Of a stretch of DNA of 34,719 nt, positions 1 through 18,000 are shown one piece after another. Position numbers: made by a program. The stretch is from Bdellovibrionales bacterium (GTDB lineage Bacteria > Bdellovibrionota > Bdellovibrionia > Bdellovibrionales > JAMPXM01): contig JAYUEN010000376.1 of NCBI GenBank assembly GCA_043739185.1, forward strand, positions 1 through 34,719. Reading direction: 5' to 3'. How positions within the stretch are numbered: position 1 is the first letter of the stretch; every line of letters starts with the position of its first letter.

Positions 1-3000
1 GCCCGTTAGGCCTTCTTTCGTGGGCTTGAGACTCCAACTGATAGATCGATCTTTACTCACGATGAAAATTCTACCACCCACACCTTTTTTAAATTCTGAA
101 ATAAGGTATTGGTCTTTTTCAAGCTCTTGAACTCCACCTTGGCTATCGGCATAAAAGTTTATGTCTTTATTGCCTTCGAAAATCATCTTTTTGGTTTATA
201 ATACGGGATCGTATTTTAAAATTGCTGAAGATTTTTCTGCATATTCATTGTCATAATATAAAATTGATTTGGCTTCCCTATCTAACTGAACATCGTGAAT
301 CGAATGCCCTTTCGAGAGGGCCTCAAAAGGAATGGACCATAATATTTTCTTAAAATCTTGGCTTAAAATAAATAAAATACAGAGTCCATTTACTGTGACC
401 AGAAAATTTCCTTTTTCCAATGCCTTTATTTTTTTTTTGAGATTTGATTTTTCGGAATCTCATAAACAGAATTAGCGTGGGAAAATTCGTGAAGAGTTGG
501 CAAAAAGGAAGTCTTTTCGGATTCACTAGCTCCTTCTCTAGGGCGAACTAAGCTAATATAAGTATTTCCGAAATAAGATGTTGAGTGCCTGCTTGCCAAC
601 TCTTCTCGGTGATCAAAGAAATCAAAGTACTTGGTCTCATTTCCCTCAAGGTCAAATATGCTAATGCGATCAAATCGCGTGCGCTCATTACGAAACTCAT
701 GAAAAGAGGACTGCAAGAAGATGAAGTGTGTTGAGTCCAGCATACGAATTGTATGATGTGCATTGAGTTTTTTTTCCCAAAGTATCTTCGCCTCCGGAGA
801 AAGCATAAAGATATGAGATTGAGTGCTCGAAATAACCCGCCCATCATCCAAATAAATGCAATGAGAACCAGGAAACTTTCGAAGGAGAGCTCCTTCATAG
901 TTTAAAATTTGGCATTCGTAAGTATAACTATAATTATCTTCGGCTTTTGCATTCAAAGACGAAAACAAAAGCCCAAACGCAAGCCAAAATTTGAAGTACG
1001 AACACCTCAAACTCATTTTGAATTTTTAAAACAAAAATTAGCTTTTAATAGCGGTTTTTCGAGATTCGCCACCGAGTGAACAGACGCTAAGGACACTTCG
1101 TCTTTTGCACAAGTCTCAGTCTTATTTTCAAAGACAAGTGAAAAATTCTTTTTATCTTTTGAAATCAAAAAGCTCGGCAATTTTGACTCTGCTGCTTTTT
1201 GACTTAAGAGCGGTCGTATTTCATCTAGGGTGCCGAAAAATGAACTCTCAGAAAGTGCTCCGTAGAGCCCCCAGGCTTGTTTAGCATTTTTAGGAAATTG
1301 CTTTTGAAGGAGAGCCGGCAAGCTTTTCACTTCAACTAATTTGAATTTATTGGTCGTCTTCCAGGCATCATAATCGATCTTTTTCACAAAAGGGTCGCCA
1401 ATAAGTTGAGAAAAAACATAACCGCGTTCTTTAGCGATTTGATGACAAGCCACACAGCCTTGCGTAACTTGCTTGAGATCTCCCGGAAAAGTATTGCCGC
1501 TCCAATCAAAGAGCGCATAGCCCCAGCCTTGAGAATCTTTGTATTTATTTTTATCCTTTACCATAAATTGAATTCTTCTCTTCCCACTCGGAACGGCCGA
1601 GCTCGGAAATGCCGGGTCTTCTTCAGAAGCAATACCAATCTTTGCGAAAACGGATCCATCGGGGTATTCAGTTTCGTTGGCTTTTAAGGTTTTGAAAGCA
1701 AGATCATTTGCATAGACAAATCTCATTTCGGCCGAGTCTTTGCGATATCGAACTGTCACAAAGTTAAACGAGGTTTTGAAATCTTCATATTGATCGGCTG
1801 AGATTTCATTCATTTTTGTTTCAGCCAGAAGGTTTTGACCAAGAAATAGCGCAAACAGTAAAAAGGCCATACTTTGAAAATTCAATTTCATAATTTCAAA
1901 CTCAACTTTCGGATTTAAGGACAATGGACCAATAGTTCTGATAACCAATCTTTAGAGTCTAACAATAAGGTGAAAAATGAGTATAGTATTTTATTTTTTT
2001 TGCAATATACAAACAGCGTTTGAGTGTGGACTGGTTCTCGCGTGCTGCATCCCAATTGAAAATAACGGGATGAAAACAAGTTGCGTTGATCAATAATTTC
2101 GATTTCATTTTCATTGCTTAAGCCCTTGGGTAAGTTCGCAAGTCGGCATTTCACTGGCACAGAATCTTGTCCAGAATAGGGTTCAATATTCGATAAAAAA
2201 TAAATTTCTTGAGACTTGATAAATGCAGCTGTTTTTAGCTTCGCCTCTTCAGCTGTCAAATCTATATACTTTTTAAGTCTAGTTGTTTCCGGCTTAAGAT
2301 ATTTTTCGTAATTGATATTGGTAAGAAAGTTTTCGCCATCCAGCCTAATTTGGATTTGCTTTTCAGGTTTTTGTAGAGGTGAAGCACATGAGTATAGACA
2401 AATACTAAATATGGCAATTGCGGAGGTGCTGCGGAGCGCCTCCAAAACTAAGCAGGTACATTTAGGCATGTCTCATTCTCGATGCTACAGATGTTGCAAG
2501 AATTATGAGCTGCAAACTGATAAAGCCAACTACGACGGCGGTGCCCCCGCTTGAGAATCCGTAGGAATGTAAGCCGGCTGCCAATACGAAATTAACTCCA
2601 TACCAAGCCATGATCACCAAGAGGTAGGCGACTGTCGATGTCGCCAAACAGCCAAAAGCATCAAGCCAGCCAGCATATTTTGCGTGGAGTATGGCGATGA
2701 AGCCGACATCGGCGATCAAGGCCCAAGTTTCTTTTGGGTCCCATCCCCAGAATCTTCCCCATGAATAGTCGGCCCATATTCCACCGAGAATAATGCCGGC
2801 GGTAAGGAGCAGGACTCCAAGTTGAGTCATGCGGTAAGCAGAATGAGCGGAAACTTTTAAAAAATCAGGAGTGGCCGTCCCAAGAATAGTGCGAACCAGC
2901 GCGAAGTTTCCGATGAGCATACAAATTGTAAATGCAGCATATGAAATCGTTATTGTTAAAACATGAATCGTAAGCCAGTAGTTACTACGTAAGACAGCAA

Positions 3001-15000: not shown

Positions 15001-18000
15001 ACTTAAGTAGTGGAACTGTGCTCGCAAATGATTGCATCGTTTGCCATACTAAAACCACTGCTGGAACTTCTTTCTCAGGTGCAAGTTTTCACAACAACAT
15101 AGGTTCGGCTTCTCCCTCAACTTGTACCACTTGCCATGCCTATACCGAGCCCACAGGAGCCTTTGCGTTCACCGGCCATAGCGCGCAAACTCTTGGCTTC
15201 AAACATGCCTCAAGTTTCGCACCTGGTGATTGCAATGCTTGCCACAGTCTCACCAATACTCAGGTAAATACTTTGATTACAGCTCACGGCAAAGTTTCAA
15301 CAAATTTCAGTGGCGGATTGTTTCATAAAAACGTGGCTCCAACGGGCGTCACTTCGTGTGTTGATTGCCACACTAAAACTGCAATCGCAAATCCAACTGT
15401 AAGTGCAATCGATGCCCAGCATATGAATCACAATTCAACCACAGTCGGAAGCGACTGCTATATGTGCCATAAAAATGACTTGGCTGCGAGTATTACACCA
15501 ACGGCTTTTGGCAAATCAAATCTCTTTCACGCTGGGACCAATACGAATCTTTCAGTATCAGGCTCAGTCGTCAGCACTTGTACGGAATGTCACGGCTTAA
15601 CAAATGGTGGCGGCTCAGTGCCGGGAACCAATAATGAAATTCCGGCTGCAGGAGCAAAAAATACCGATGTGGCTTCGACTTATCCAGCAGGCAATACGAC
15701 ACTGATGGATCAGATCGACCATAACGATACAACTGTAACCGGCAAAGATTGTGATATTTGTCACACCAATATTGGTCCTACCGGCCCTAAATGGAAGTCC
15801 GCAAAATTTCACGCCAATGTCGCCGTCACCGGCCCAGCGACAGCCTGTGAATCATGTCACGCAAACTTAAGACCTGCAGGCATTGCAAACGGTGAAGATC
15901 ATTCTGTAACTGCACCCATGTCTCATACCGCTTGCGGAACTTGTCATACTAATCCTGCAGGAACCGGAACCATTGGCTCGACTTCTTCTCCACCAAATTG
16001 GTTAAATGCAGTCGGTGGAAGTATCCCTGCTACAATTACATTTCCTGCACCTACAGGCTCTGGGTGGGCTCCGTTAACTCTTGCGCATCCCGTTCCTGCC
16101 ACAGGCGTCACCTGTGCTCAATGTCATGGTACATCTGTCGGCGCAACTGTCATAGGCTGGGATCATGGCCATATGCCAGCACTTCCGTCTGGAGCTAAAT
16201 ATTGTATGTATTGTCATTTGACTGGCCAACAAGTTGTAGCAACTGCTGGACTTACTAAATTTCAAACCAAGGCAATCAACCATCACGGGACCATCGGCCC
16301 AACCGATACCTGTGAGTATTGCCATACCCCTGGCCAAAACGTGCATCAGAATTTTTCATATCCTAATCCGTGGAACTCAGGTACCACCGGCAATGTCAGC
16401 GGCCCTTAAGATAGTGCCAACTAACATTTCGTAATTCAACGAGTCGTGAAATTTTAAATGTACAATAAACTTTACATGTCGGCATGTATAGTCTATTGTA
16501 CATTTTATGCCGCGAATTTATCAAAGTTATAATATTGAAAATTGTATTCAGGAGCTTCGGGGCAAAACCGAGCTAACACAGCAAGAGTTGGCTAACGAGC
16601 TTGGAATCACTCGGGCAACCGTTTTAGCTCTTGAAAAGGGAAGTTATAATCCTTCCCTCGAATTGGCATTTCGAATATCTAAATATTTTAAATTGGGGAT
16701 AGAAGAAATTTTTAAAGTGAAAGGAAAATGAAATGAAAAAACTCCTCCCGTGGACACAGAATTATTTGCTCTTGGCGGCTCCCTTTGTAATTACCATTAT
16801 GATTTGGGGTACAATTCAGCCCGAAGACGAAATTGCAAAATCAAACTTTTGGCTTTCGAGAATTCTCTGGGAAGTTTTGGCATGGCATCTGATGTTTTGG
16901 TTCACTACCTTGTTTCTCTTTTTACTTTCACTCTTAGTTGTTCCCAAGGCATCTGAAAAAACTCTCACTCAACTTGCTCAAATTAAAGAGCGGGATGAAC
17001 GTGAGGAGTTTATTACGGGGCGAGCTGCGAAAACCGCCTTTGTTTCTGGATTGGCTCTACTTTTGTTTCTTTTGTTTATTTCGATGCTAAGCCTTCAGAT
17101 CACGCAACTTCCAAAGGAACAAGCTATTTACGGTAAAACCGGAACATTGAACCTCGGTATGCATTTCAATCTAATTGATCAGCCCAAAGTAGAAGCGCCA
17201 TTGGCAGGAAAAATTGTTTTTGAGACCAGGGATATTCCAATTTCAAAATCTGGAATCATACTAGCCGTGCTGGTTTGGCAGCTTCTTGCTTTTCACTTAA
17301 GAGCAAAAAAGGAGAACGCCGCAGGCTAACGGAGCACTGCGCCTCCAAAACTAAGCAGGTACTTTTCGGAGCTCGAATATGAATTGCCACGACATAAGCC
17401 GCACTAGAGGAGTGCGTGTAAGCCAGGAGTCGACCCAATTGAAGAGTGCCAGCACAGGCCTTGAAAGGCCAGGAATACGGCTTGCGAAAACTGCGAGCGG
17501 AGCCAAAATATGAAAATATCGTATGCTGCCTACCTCGAAAAAACGCGATGCAAATTCAACATCTTTTAAAGACAAGATATGCGCCTTTTCCCATTCTGTT
17601 CTCATTGATGGCGTCAGATTGCGGTAGAGCTTAATCAGCGGATTATAATCGAGAGCCTCAATTGCAAGGATCACTCCTCCGGGCTTTAAAACCCTACGTA
17701 GCTCAGGAAAAGCATAACTCAAATCAAGGTGGTGGAGCATTCCACTGCAAATGATGACATCAAATGAATTGTCAGGAAGACCTGTGTTTTCACAATCGGC
17801 CTGCATAAATGAAACGCGATCGCTCAAGCCTAAGCTAGAGGCTTCTTGACTTGCATTTTGCACTGAAACGTCTGAAATATCGATCCCAACCGAAAACTCA
17901 GCTCCTAATTTTGCACTTCTAATTGCGAGTGGGCCGTTTCCGCAGGCGTAATCTAAAACCACTTTTCCGGGGAGGTGGGTTTGAAACCAAGAGGTAATAT

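Follow-up and report, generated by a model that had tools for sequence, protein, structure and literature searches.

Gene content and conservation of the locus

The window, a 34,719-nt stretch of genomic DNA from a sediment bacterium related to Bdellovibrio, contains two divergently oriented gene groups, which are listed here with the region that separates them.

1013-1948, minus strand: cytochrome P460 (Pfam P460, 95.3 bits) with one CxxCH motif; a neighbor in this genome only
1915-2469, minus strand: 184-aa Cys-rich ORF (8 Cys) with no assigned function, overlapping the CcsA and P460 genes
2462-4219, minus strand: CcsA-like haem-handling subunit, 585 aa (Pfam Cytochrom_C_asm, 82.9 bits; cut-off 29.9)
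4201-6099, minus strand: ResB/CcsB-like system-II cytochrome c synthesis protein, 632 aa (Pfam ResB, 70.9 bits; cut-off 24.6)
6100-6292, no strand: divergent intergenic region, set by ORF coordinates, between the maturation operon and the putative conduit operon
6293-7657, plus strand: 22-strand plugless outer-membrane β-barrel (AlphaFold2 model), without Pfam or NCBIfam match
7654-10350, plus strand: 33-haem cytochrome c, 898 aa (33 CxxCH; Cytochrome_C7)
10459-11814, plus strand: FeS/FAD protein with 2x[4Fe-4S] and a FAD/NAD(P)H domain (Pfam Fer4 and Pyr_redox_3)
11855-12733, plus strand: 292-aa membrane protein, probable dihaem cytochrome b (invariant His; weak DUF4405)
12822-16409, plus strand: 27-haem cytochrome c, 1195 aa (27 CxxCH; MtrC/MtrF II/IV domain)

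The ORFs of the preliminary description, its counts of 33 and 27 CxxCH motifs, its extra ResB/CcsA pair and its family-less barrel were all found again. Across the whole 4.85-Mb assembly, at least three CxxCH motifs are present in only three open frames (of at least 80 aa), namely the two large cytochromes and a 5-haem frame on another contig (C398:22171-22857), which agrees with the maximum of five given earlier for any other protein. Inspection of the intergenic sequence yielded only generic promoter-like matches and nothing specific.

The ResB and CcsA genes overlap by 19 nt, and CcsA also scores 125.8 bits against the NCBIfam CcsB model TIGR03144, under the cut-off of 187.6. As previously reported, a second ResB-CcsA pair is found on C398, where genes of alternative complex III (5-haem ActA, ActB-like, NrfD-type ActC and ActD) follow immediately downstream of it. 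The two ResB copies are 29-30% identical, and the two CcsA copies share 37% identity across 551 aa. The 184-aa ORF matches no Pfam or NCBIfam family and has no homologue in any of 20 related loci of the order; it is, at most, an accessory to the conserved set.

Linkage was assessed in these 20 loci of the order and in 12 further loci chosen from 37. The barrel gene is adjacent to, and co-directional with, a gene for a 21-33-haem cytochrome in all of them (20/20 and 12/12), the two overlapping by 4 nt in 17 and by 1 nt in 3 of the loci of the order. Within the order, the membrane protein is present in 19 of the 20 loci, the second cytochrome in 17, the FeS/FAD protein in 16, and ResB together with CcsA in 19, this pair also occurring in 3 of the 12 further loci. 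In seven of those 12, the FeS/FAD protein, membrane protein, barrel and cytochrome are encoded in one same-strand block without ResB/CcsA, and this co-directional operon is seen in divergent lineages.

The set had been ascribed to a scattered minority of the order. Its distribution is patchy, and the barrel is present in 36 of 384 genomes of the order, not just in the 9 of 150 given earlier. Strong matches to the membrane protein were obtained in 31 genomes of the order, every one of them barrel-positive, while the five barrel-positive genomes without such a match are 81-89% complete. All named carriers are uncultured MAG-type records; the earlier label of "predator" was assumed from taxonomy and is not borne out. 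Among the genomes listed without a match in a sample of the phylum are five single-contig, closed-looking genomes of genus g21, which have no copy.

The barrel and the two large cytochromes

A search among 1.84 billion representatives recovered the same 157 relatives of the barrel (E ≤ 0.001) as before. Its AlphaFold2 model, built from 101 sequences, has a pLDDT of 93.4 and shows short loops, no plug domain and, by DSSP count, 22 strands rather than the "about 24" given previously. The best folds identified with VIA-align are no longer ushers and porins but 22-strand TonB-dependent transporter barrels (Z 17-19). The lumen of such transporters normally holds a plug, which is absent from the modeled barrel. 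Contrary to the preliminary description, MtrB (6r2q_B) does match by fold, with a Z of 14.8 over 334 residues, although the barrel has no sequence match to the MtrB_PioB family; this likeness says nothing about what the barrel contains. Distant relatives carry the names Pseudobdellovibrionaceae, Oligoflexus and Bacteriovoracaceae and, judged by named records, the family is confined to Bdellovibrionota.

The 33-haem cytochrome, the first 4 nt of whose gene overlap the end of the barrel gene, contains 66 Cys and 73 His, is rich in Lys (12.2%) and has a leader of the signal-peptidase-I type. Cytochrome_C7 (111 bits in this protein), c3 and MtrC/MtrF II/IV domains of Pfam match both large cytochromes. 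Thirty haem sites of the 33-haem protein are kept in 21/21 orthologues, as are 30 His outside these sites, a pattern expected of bis-His haems in electron transfer, and the number of haems is a multiple of three in 30 of 31 complete orthologues. Among solved structures, the orthologue profile matches 3ov0_A best (E 5.2e-9), which we take to be the Geobacter dodecahaem poly-c7 "nanowire" cytochrome GSU1996. The profile also aligns to residues 65-324 of the 333 in the MtrA chain (6r2q_A, E 6e-6) and matches high-molecular-weight cytochrome c weakly, as the window's own protein does an HmcA model; the first ten haems also match a DmsE-family model. These sequence features point to a Sec-exported protein of 11 trihaem (c7-type) modules, with MtrA-like N-terminal ten haems. 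It thus shares tandem trihaem modules with 3ov0, but would have eleven rather than four, fused to the MtrA-like decahaem N terminus, and is genetically coupled to a barrel.

The 27-haem cytochrome, with an MtrC/MtrF II/IV domain at 126.3 bits, 55 Cys and 65 His, has exactly one Cys outside its CxxCH motifs. Its start is probably Met17 (nt 12870), and its signal ends in FQNC, a type of N terminus also found in counterparts from other loci. FQNC differs from the canonical lipobox, which counts against a lipoprotein. Lys (2.5%) and Glu (1.2%) are scarce, and Ser, Thr, Asn and Gly together make up about 40% of the residues. With its lipoprotein-like signal and surface-like composition, we propose that this protein is the terminal cytochrome on the cell surface.

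A putative input module at the inner membrane

The FeS/FAD protein matches Pyr_redox_3 (136.5 bits) and Fer4 families, both the FAD fold and a second nucleotide-binding fold being found. Its nearest solved chains are YpdA/Bdr (7a76, E 1e-24) and ferredoxin-NADP reductases of the thioredoxin-reductase type. In 16/16 sequences a hydrophobic helix is followed by a K/R-rich stretch, and a twin-arginine motif is found in none of the 16. This anchor suggests an N-terminally tethered, cytoplasm-facing enzyme of the thioredoxin-reductase/ferredoxin-NADP-reductase type.

The 292-aa membrane protein has no Pfam match of its own, even at E ≤ 1, but 13 of 20 orthologues match DUF4405 weakly (best E 0.0034). 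H100, H114, H264, H267 and H281 are invariant in 20/20 sequences, four invariant transmembrane His lying 14 residues apart on two helices. Because of these four His and the weak DUF4405 matches, we consider it to be probably an inner-membrane dihaem cytochrome b, DUF4405-like. Its AlphaFold2 model (pLDDT 82.5), read together with the loop charges, has a helical cytoplasmic loop of 110 aa, and it has no convincing match among solved folds; it shows five helices, versus six described for DUF4405.

The two proteins look like a module, missed in the preliminary description, that would pass electrons from cytoplasm to periplasm, and nothing else in the system is as unusual. In NOX enzymes, a cytoplasmic NAD(P)H/FAD unit feeds two stacked b haems. 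The predicted module would follow this eukaryotic NOX/FRE logic, and its four central transmembrane His and predicted electron transfer across the membrane resemble those of DUF4405, MsrQ, PepSY-like and ferric-reductase-type dihaem cytochromes b. DUF4405 proteins have been shown to bind haem b (preprint 10.1101/2024.03.13.584918). The matches are weak, however, and the module differs from these systems in its five predicted helices with a 110-aa coiled cytoplasmic loop, in its partner, which is a separate FeS-flavoprotein instead of a flavinylated extracytosolic protein or a fused FNR domain, and in its output, which would be a multihaem c wire.

Proposed electron path and alternative readings

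We consider it probable, from gene content and linkage, that the set is an electron conduit spanning the whole cell envelope. It resembles a wire with some 60 haems that would start at an NAD(P)H-type enzyme in the cytoplasm, cross both membranes and end on the cell surface, and seems to be partly made of protein families new to such systems. While the parts, their cofactor motifs, their conservation and linkage and the barrel fold can be read directly, we infer the contacts between parts, their topology, transfer across the outer membrane, its direction and the acceptor. Electrons would pass from NAD(P)H to the FAD of a flavoprotein that is anchored in the inner membrane on the cytoplasmic side, and then via its two FeS clusters to the small cytochrome b, whose two bis-His haems would lie one near each membrane face. 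From there they would enter the exported chain of eleven trihaem modules, which would cross the periplasm with one end sheathed by the plugless barrel, whose gene is translationally coupled to its own. The lipid-anchored 27-haem cytochrome would finally hand them on to an acceptor that is insoluble or of high molecular weight, e.g., Fe(III)/Mn(IV) minerals, humics or, possibly, another cell that serves as partner or prey. The dedicated ResB/CcsA pair would attach the 60 haems.

That electrons flow outward from NAD(P)H without quinones is a more tentative proposal, to which we give somewhat less than an even chance. The membrane protein may hold a quinone site, and moving electrons from NAD(P)H out of the cytoplasm would use up membrane potential instead of building it. 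The genome also encodes two haem-copper oxidases and alternative complex III, so the organism does not depend on this route.

MtrB has 26 strands, and MtrCAB is fed by CymA, a quinol-oxidizing tetrahaem cytochrome. Its logic combines an outer-membrane barrel, a multihaem wire derived from the periplasm and a surface lipoprotein cytochrome (PMC7096707). The genes described here suggest the same combination as in Shewanella MtrCAB (6r2q), with MtrA-, MtrB- and MtrC/MtrF-like features in the respective proteins. Unlike in MtrCAB, the barrel forms its strands from 417 mature residues rather than about 650, the wire carries 21-33 haems, not 10, the barrel gene stands first, and the input is a flavo-FeS protein with a cytochrome b.

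Geobacter clusters are ordered porin, periplasmic cytochrome, lipoprotein outer cytochrome, and rely on small individual carriers in the periplasm and on inner-membrane cytochromes linked to quinol. These clusters (OmbB-OmaB-OmcB, ExtABCD and others) have a modular make-up and a patchy distribution (PMC12307469). Gene order, modularity and patchiness liken our set to them, but here a single polypeptide with as many as 33 haems would stand in for such carriers and cytochromes, together with a module of the NAD(P)H type. In the Hmc/Tmc complexes of sulfate reducers, a cytochrome b of the membrane is encoded together with a multihaem c of the periplasm and an FeS protein of the cytoplasm. The same three kinds of component are predicted here, in line with the weak profile match to high-molecular-weight cytochrome c, but the cytoplasmic subunit is a TrxR/FNR-type flavoprotein instead of an HdrD-like CCG protein, and the set has, in addition, a barrel in the outer membrane and a putative surface cytochrome.

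It is unlikely, in our view, that the outer membrane is not crossed at all. The 33-haem protein would then store electrons in the periplasm or act there as a reductase, supplied by the inner membrane, and the barrel would be an ordinary channel for solutes or secretion, used, e.g., by a soluble acceptor or to export the second cytochrome. In favor of this, no sequence similarity ties the barrel to porins known to sheathe cytochromes, and capacitor-like storage has been proposed for very large multihaem proteins (PMC11495043). However, a 22-strand barrel that stood open, with neither plug nor long loops, would leave a large hole, its family is limited to genomes that also carry the other parts, its gene is coupled to that of the cytochrome in 32/32 loci, and the second cytochrome is lipoprotein-like and surface-like. 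This strict adjacency, the plugless barrel, the character of the second cytochrome and the co-occurrence of barrel and membrane protein all strengthen the core of the conduit reading. The outer-membrane conduit of the preliminary description is partly supported, as a putative porin-cytochrome core with its own maturation genes, but without the P460, the 24 strands and the predator.

The same apparatus might instead work inward, which we regard as quite improbable, taking up electrons at the surface from Fe(II) minerals, reduced humics or a cathode-like partner or prey, and passing them to the cytoplasm, where the flavoprotein would transfer them to NAD(P)+ or some other acceptor. The haems all have the look of reversible bis-His haems, ferredoxin-NADP reductases of the thioredoxin-reductase type work both ways, and for a cytoplasm-facing redox module this is the energy-conserving direction, electron import with cytoplasmic proton consumption building membrane potential as in Hmc/Tmc. 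Reducing NAD(P)+ (about -320 mV) nevertheless needs a donor below Fe(II) or most humics, the window offers no carbon-fixation or lithotrophy context, and the organism has ordinary aerobic respiration. Relatives of MtrAB of the MtoAB/PioAB type, which work inward (10.1101/2024.09.20.614158), also speak for this direction.

A nitrogen-oxide or hydroxylamine module, with P460 as its catalytic end and the multihaem proteins serving periplasmic respiration or detoxification, would fit the position of P460 in this genome, where it follows ResB/CcsA in the same orientation and the gene ends overlap, but no other nitrogen-cycle gene occurs in the window, and P460 is found in 0/20 loci of the order (including one of the same genus) and 0/12 further loci. 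Since none of the 32 related loci carries it, P460, earlier counted as a component, lies outside the system, and synteny brings this highly improbable reading close to refutation.

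Organization and conservation of the gene cluster

The cluster consists of two divergent gene groups, joined at nt 6100-6292 of the window, a stretch in which we found only generic promoter and regulator consensus matches. A half FNR-like TTGAT spotted there by eye was dropped.

Genes of the two divergent groups
426-1016, minus strand: 196-aa ORF
1013-1948, minus strand: cytochrome P460
1915-2469, minus strand: Cys-rich 184-aa ORF
2462-4219, minus strand: CcsA
4201-6099, minus strand: ResB
6293-7657, plus strand: barrel protein, 454 aa
7654-10350, plus strand: 898-aa cytochrome, 33 CxxCH motifs
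10459-11814, plus strand: FeS/FAD protein
11855-12733, plus strand: 292-aa membrane protein
12822-16409, plus strand: 1195-aa cytochrome, 27 CxxCH motifs

Gene ends overlap within the minus group, and on the plus strand the start of the 898-aa cytochrome overlaps the barrel stop codon by 4 nt. Pfam and NCBIfam bear out the gene labels of the preliminary description, and a recount of the haem motifs again gave 33 and 27. Its observations stand, with corrections to the strand number of the barrel, to the place of the cytochrome P460 and to the lifestyle of the organism; its interpretation, that the gene set is by its logic a porin-cytochrome conduit, is partly supported and can be sharpened.

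We fetched about 20 kb around each of 20 barrel copies in related genomes and compared all ORFs with the window proteins.

Gene content of the 20 loci
Barrel and, next downstream on its strand, a 29-33-haem cytochrome: 20 of 20, overlapping by 4 nt in 17 and by 1 nt in 3
ResB and CcsA: 19 of 20
292-aa membrane protein: 19 of 20
Second cytochrome (counterpart of the 27-haem protein), 6-27 haems: 17 of 20
FeS/FAD protein: 16 of 20
P460: 0 of 20

In the twentieth locus, the membrane protein sits 4.6 kb past the stretch compared, and two of the four loci missing the FeS/FAD gene reach a contig end. A further 12 loci, picked from 37 returned by a scan of the genome collection with a 21-row barrel alignment, all have the barrel next to the cytochrome. 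In seven of these 12, from divergent lineages (records titled Oligoflexia, “Deltaproteobacteria,” “Proteobacteria” or Bdellovibrionales MAGs), the FeS/FAD protein, membrane protein, barrel and cytochrome form a single one-strand block, which includes the second cytochrome in five; no ResB/CcsA genes occur within the DNA compared around these seven blocks. The invariant core is therefore these four genes, and the private ResB/CcsA pair is an addition typical of the order. As for cytochrome P460, which had been proposed as part of the system, the window ORF contains a genuine P460 domain (PF16694, 95.3 bits), but since the gene is missing from all 32 related loci it is no member of the system. 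Between CcsA and P460, the 184-aa ORF (1915-2469, minus) is wedged in with overlaps at both sides; it has eight Cys and a signal-like start, no family match, and no counterpart in the 20 loci.

The barrel is present in 36 of 384 genomes of the order, including 21 of 274 high-quality ones (about one in ten), and in 22 of 401 genomes of a phylum-wide sample (about one in twenty). By family, it occurs in 5 of 34, 19 of 182 and 11 of 109 genomes, and in none of the ten other families. A strong match to the membrane protein was found in 31 genomes of the order, every one of them barrel-positive, and the five barrel-positive genomes without such a match are 81-89% complete. Family labels group together in a 21-row barrel tree (five changes, against 9.3 on average in 200 shuffles, none of which gave so few). 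No family forms one clade and the deep branches lack resolution; on these sequences, the tree neither shows nor excludes horizontal transfer. The host had been called a predator, which is an inference from taxonomy, because the named records carrying the set are all uncultured genome bins or similar, and no copy of the barrel was found in those single-contig genomes of the largest genus that were listed. In locus L013, on a 1.77-Mb contig of a related genome (G080:C13:399500-419400), the FeS/FAD gene is broken into three frames, CcsA and the second cytochrome into two each, and the large cytochrome shows 29 haem motifs instead of 30, which reflects either homopolymer-type assembly error or a decaying copy.

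The genome itself (G000; 4.85 Mb in 540 contigs, 41.8% GC, 97.65% completeness, 3.73% contamination) has only one other frame with at least three CxxCH motifs, the 5-haem ActA on contig C398, which belongs to an alternative complex III operon directly behind a second ResB/CcsA pair. There (C398:14000-28000, locus L033), the second pair lies directly upstream of ActA, a 1021-aa ActB-like FeS/molybdopterin-fold protein, an NrfD-type ActC and ActD. Two genes for haem-copper oxidase subunit I are present as well, and a search for cytochrome bd found none. With this gene content, the organism looks like an aerobe with an added module. The 27-haem gene has a GC fraction of 0.465-0.475, apart from which base composition gives no island signature. 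The remainder of the window (16.7-34.7 kb) encodes a 667-aa DUF255/DsbH-type thioredoxin-fold protein (21340-23343, minus) and an HTH and DUF4423 regulator (27415-28284, minus); most of its other large ORFs have no Pfam match. The window stretch is contained in four DNA sequencing runs from one study. Two of these may be its own source, and of the other two one is labelled sediment metagenome; no RNA run containing it is listed.

Proposed path from the periplasm to the cell surface

The 33-haem protein starts with a signal-peptidase-I type leader, is 12.2% Lys and has all of its Cys in CxxCH motifs. Its haem sites are arranged in eleven triplets that share a recurring motif, and Cytochrome_C7 (PF14522) scores 111.1 and 122 bits on the cytochromes (111 for the 33-haem protein) against a cut-off of 24.8, so that both score and trihaem periodicity are those of cytochrome c7-type repeats. 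In 21 of 21 orthologues 30 haem sites are kept and exactly 30 further His are invariant, a count that fits bis-His electron-transfer haems throughout the protein. The other three sites (652, 668 and 701) make up one trihaem module (residues 652-728, window 9607-9837), which closely duplicates the adjacent module and occurs in only 5 of 21 orthologues. Among 31 complete orthologues, haem number is 21, 24, 27, 30 or 33 in 30, the exception having 29; since these are steps of three, the wire changes length by whole modules.

Searching PDB sequences with the single sequence found nothing. When a profile of the orthologues was used, it matched the 318-aa chain 3ov0_A (E 5.2e-9), which we take to be a Geobacter dodecahaem of four c7-type domains, about 12 nm long, and its positions 63-329 aligned to residues 65-324 of the 333-residue MtrA chain of 6r2q (E 6e-6). 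In agreement with the latter, the MtrA/DmsE decahaem model TIGR03508 covers residues 66-325 with 62 bits. This is below its curated cut-off of 192.2, and the protein, MtrA-like in its first ten haems, was not assigned to that family. On these matches, the 33-haem protein is predicted to combine an MtrA-like decahaem head with a poly-c7 tail. Judging from the solved dodecahaem, one trihaem module would measure roughly 3 nm, and the whole protein, were it as extended as its solved relatives, would span about 20-30 nm. The width of the Gram-negative periplasm is comparable, so a single molecule could extend from the inner membrane into the barrel.

The barrel protein belongs to no curated family in Pfam (E <= 0.01) or NCBIfam. 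It has 157 relatives among 1.84 billion representatives, and the named ones, down to 22-25% identity, are all Bdellovibrionota-type records. AlphaFold2 run on 101 sequences (pLDDT 93.4, pTM 0.84) gave a signal segment followed by 22 strands, instead of the approximately 24 described earlier, that take up residues 39-437; the loops are short and a plug is absent. Foldseek reproduced the reported likeness to porins and the FimD/PapC ushers (E about 1e-9). In a full structural scan, the top matches were 22-strand TonB-dependent transporter barrels (5t3r_D, Z 18.9; FyuA, 17.8; Cir, 17.3; BtuB, 17.2), and MtrB (6r2q_B) ranked 16th (Z 14.8, rmsd 5.6, 334 residues aligned), below these transporter barrels at Z 17-19. 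The MtrB/PioB model PF11854 has no match in a six-frame search of the whole genome at its 97.65% completeness, and the barrel was not placed in that family.

From the model, we infer that the barrel needs an occupant, because a barrel of transporter width has nothing of its own filling the lumen; this fits the translational coupling of barrel to cytochrome. Many charged residues of the barrel are invariant. After the last strand, a conserved C-terminal tail (residues 438-454, window 7604-7654) has the consensus RDGAPPRGxL, or P-x-R-D-G-A-P-P-x-G-x-L, which is unusual since outer-membrane barrels normally end in an aromatic residue. Judged from the alignment, these residues and the tail point to a conserved protein partner, and the tail may be contacted by the cytochrome or during assembly. 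We also predicted complexes of the barrel (residues 37-454, the scored partner) with pieces 22-310 and 610-898 of the 33-haem protein, each supplied as an alignment. Scores were 0.63, 0.63 and 0.64, short of the margin required over the controls, which gave 0.01 and 0.00 when the partner was replaced and 0.56 when the N-terminal piece was replaced; we count these scores neither for nor against binding.

As for the 27-haem protein, translation from Met17 gives a signal segment ending in FQNC (window 12870-12935), whose Cys is the sole one outside the 27 haem motifs. Of 19 second-cytochrome frames at other loci, 12 have a signal ending in FQNC and five in another x-x-x-C, the remaining two missing their N-terminus through a frameshift or contig end; 11 of the 19 have exactly one extra Cys. 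A canonical lipobox reads L-[AS]-[GA]-C at the end of the signal peptide, from which FQNC differs. In this genome, N-terminal hydrophobic segments end in FQNC far more often than in any other tetrapeptide (11 of 99 signal-like ORF starts, the next reaching two). FQNC is probably a lineage-specific lipobox or other sorting or lipidation signal rather than a chance feature. The protein has few charged residues (2.5% Lys, 1.2% Glu) and much Ser, Thr, Asn and Gly, and six stretches of it match the MtrC/MtrF II/IV haem domain (PF22113, 126.3 bits versus a cut-off of 30). Its signal, composition and haem domains fit a surface-exposed terminal cytochrome, as predicted from sequence. Haem number of the second cytochrome varies widely between loci. 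Membership of the OmcA/MtrC decahaem family (TIGR03507) was rejected at 53.2 bits versus a cut-off of 209.3.

The proposed inner-membrane entry and the haem-attachment genes

The FeS/FAD protein starts with one hydrophobic helix followed by a K/R-rich stretch, and a twin-arginine motif is absent from the window sequence and from 15 orthologues. Its cofactor domains are predicted to face the cytoplasm, since the positive-inside rule puts the K/R stretch there and export of an FeS protein would depend on the Tat route. These domains are a 2x[4Fe-4S] ferredoxin and an FAD and second-nucleotide fold (Pfam, NCBIfam), with YpdA/Bdr and thioredoxin-reductase-type ferredoxin-NADP reductases as the closest solved structures. 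YpdA/Bdr bacillithiol-disulfide reductase was rejected as an identity (TIGR04018, 154.7 bits versus a cut-off of 339.9); the FAD motif is GAGPAG, at the place of which the catalytic Cys of Bdr presumably falls.

The 292-aa protein has five predicted helices and a 110-aa helical loop, predicted from K/R counts to be cytoplasmic. H100 and H114 in helix 3 and H267 (with H264) and H281 in helix 5 are invariant in all 20 sequences; H100 and H114, and likewise H267 and H281, are 14 residues apart, the classic signature of two stacked bis-His b haems. The protein has the four conserved central transmembrane His sought as the mark of DUF4405. To the DUF4405 model itself (PF14358), the window protein has no match at E <= 1, and weak matches were obtained for 13 of 20 orthologues (best E 0.0034); two of the 20 match Ferric_reduct. 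A purified DUF4405 protein has been reported to bind haem b, and transmembrane electron carriage was proposed for it (10.1101/2024.03.13.584918). Foldseek of the 292-aa model against PDB returned nothing at E <= 0.001, a profile search against PDB sequences had a best E of 0.45, and VIA-align wide gave helical bundles and coiled coils with a best Z of 9.1, under the trusted level for helical models. Look-alikes in the protein atlas were only unnamed clusters of Acidobacteriota, Verrucomicrobiota and Gemmatimonadota (0.93-0.94). In two loci, a gene for a 10-haem lipoprotein-like cytochrome lies between the FeS/FAD and membrane-protein genes. The simplest reading of these sequences would be a three-layer module, with NAD(P)H, FAD and FeS in the cytoplasm, dihaem b in the membrane and haem c in the periplasm.

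The maturation genes of the window are of system II by their Pfam scores (ResB, 70.9 bits versus 24.6; Cytochrom_C_asm, 82.9 versus 29.9), while on CcsA the equivalog model TIGR03144 is below its cut-off (125.8 versus 187.6). The two ResB/CcsA pairs of the genome are diverged paralogues (29-30% identity for ResB, 37% for CcsA). A membrane-anchored ResA/TlpA-type thioredoxin-like protein of about 180 aa with WASWCxPC, a type that keeps apocytochrome cysteines reduced in system II, is encoded beside the large cytochrome in 18 of 20 loci (e.g., L013:6204-6779). This gene is missing from the window cluster and from a locus of the same genus (L018), and the best copy in the genome is at C319:818-1132, on another contig, with 41% identity.

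Proposed direction of electron flow and relation to known conduits

On its most far-reaching interpretation, the set would be a “bacterial NOX with a wire” that works without quinones. A membrane-tethered FNR-ferredoxin fusion would oxidise NAD(P)H, electrons would cross the inner membrane via a DUF4405-like dihaem b, and one 21-33-haem polypeptide of 7-11 trihaem modules would bridge the entire periplasm, its haem chain threading a new 22-strand barrel to reach a surface lipoprotein cytochrome. Neither a soluble periplasmic shuttle nor a quinol dehydrogenase would be needed. Once oxygen is exhausted, such a conduit could serve sediment Bdellovibrionota as a redox vent to minerals, humics or prey. 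Taken as a whole, redox-vent use included, we consider this reading less likely than not.

On direction alone, we lean towards outward flow, with somewhat less than even confidence. Outward flow from NAD(P)H would be thermodynamically easy and would follow the logic of NOX and ferric reductases; as it would dissipate membrane potential, its role would be to balance redox state and not to conserve energy directly. Inward flow, which we regard as distinctly improbable, would be energy-conserving but would call for a donor of very low potential.

To our knowledge, the known trans-envelope conduits (Mtr, Pcc/Ext and Mto/Pio) all take electrons from quinol at the inner membrane, use small shuttles in the periplasm and draw on a limited range of porins. 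In contrast, the present set has a new barrel family (no PF11854 match), a one-piece 21-33-haem wire, a variable outer cytochrome with a predicted FQNC anchor, a predicted NAD(P)H-type flavo-FeS/dihaem-b entry and, within this order, private system-II maturation genes. If the proposed outward conduit is real, it adds to the known conduits a new porin family, a periplasm-length haem chain in one piece whose module number varies in three-haem steps, and an NAD(P)H-type entry that bypasses the quinone pool. The phylum is known for aerobic predators; since the set occurs in about a tenth of the order and a twentieth of the phylum sample, part of the phylum may contribute to the redox cycling of iron, manganese or humics in sediments. 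The compact set, five conduit and two maturation genes, would also be an attractive candidate for transfer to a laboratory host for bioelectrochemistry.

We found no paper describing this gene set in Bdellovibrionota; a supplementary table of 10.1101/2022.03.26.485925 may list these proteins, and Bdellovibrio is absent from the main text of PMC11475568. That electron-transfer cytochromes occur in Bdellovibrionota bins is, as a general idea, already in the former source, a 2022 preprint, which reports FeGenie-type matches to electron-transfer proteins in Bacteriovoracia and Bdellovibrionia bins and speculates on their use by predators (10.1101/2022.03.26.485925). Separate MtrA/MtrB-like genes have been reported, by another method, for the FG genome bins in a paper on magnetotactic Bdellovibrionota (PMC13200544). 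One of our loci (L057) comes from a record titled like those bins, Bdellovibrionota bacterium FG-2, and carries the barrel, a 24-haem cytochrome and, at the contig end, the start of a membrane protein of the 292-aa type.
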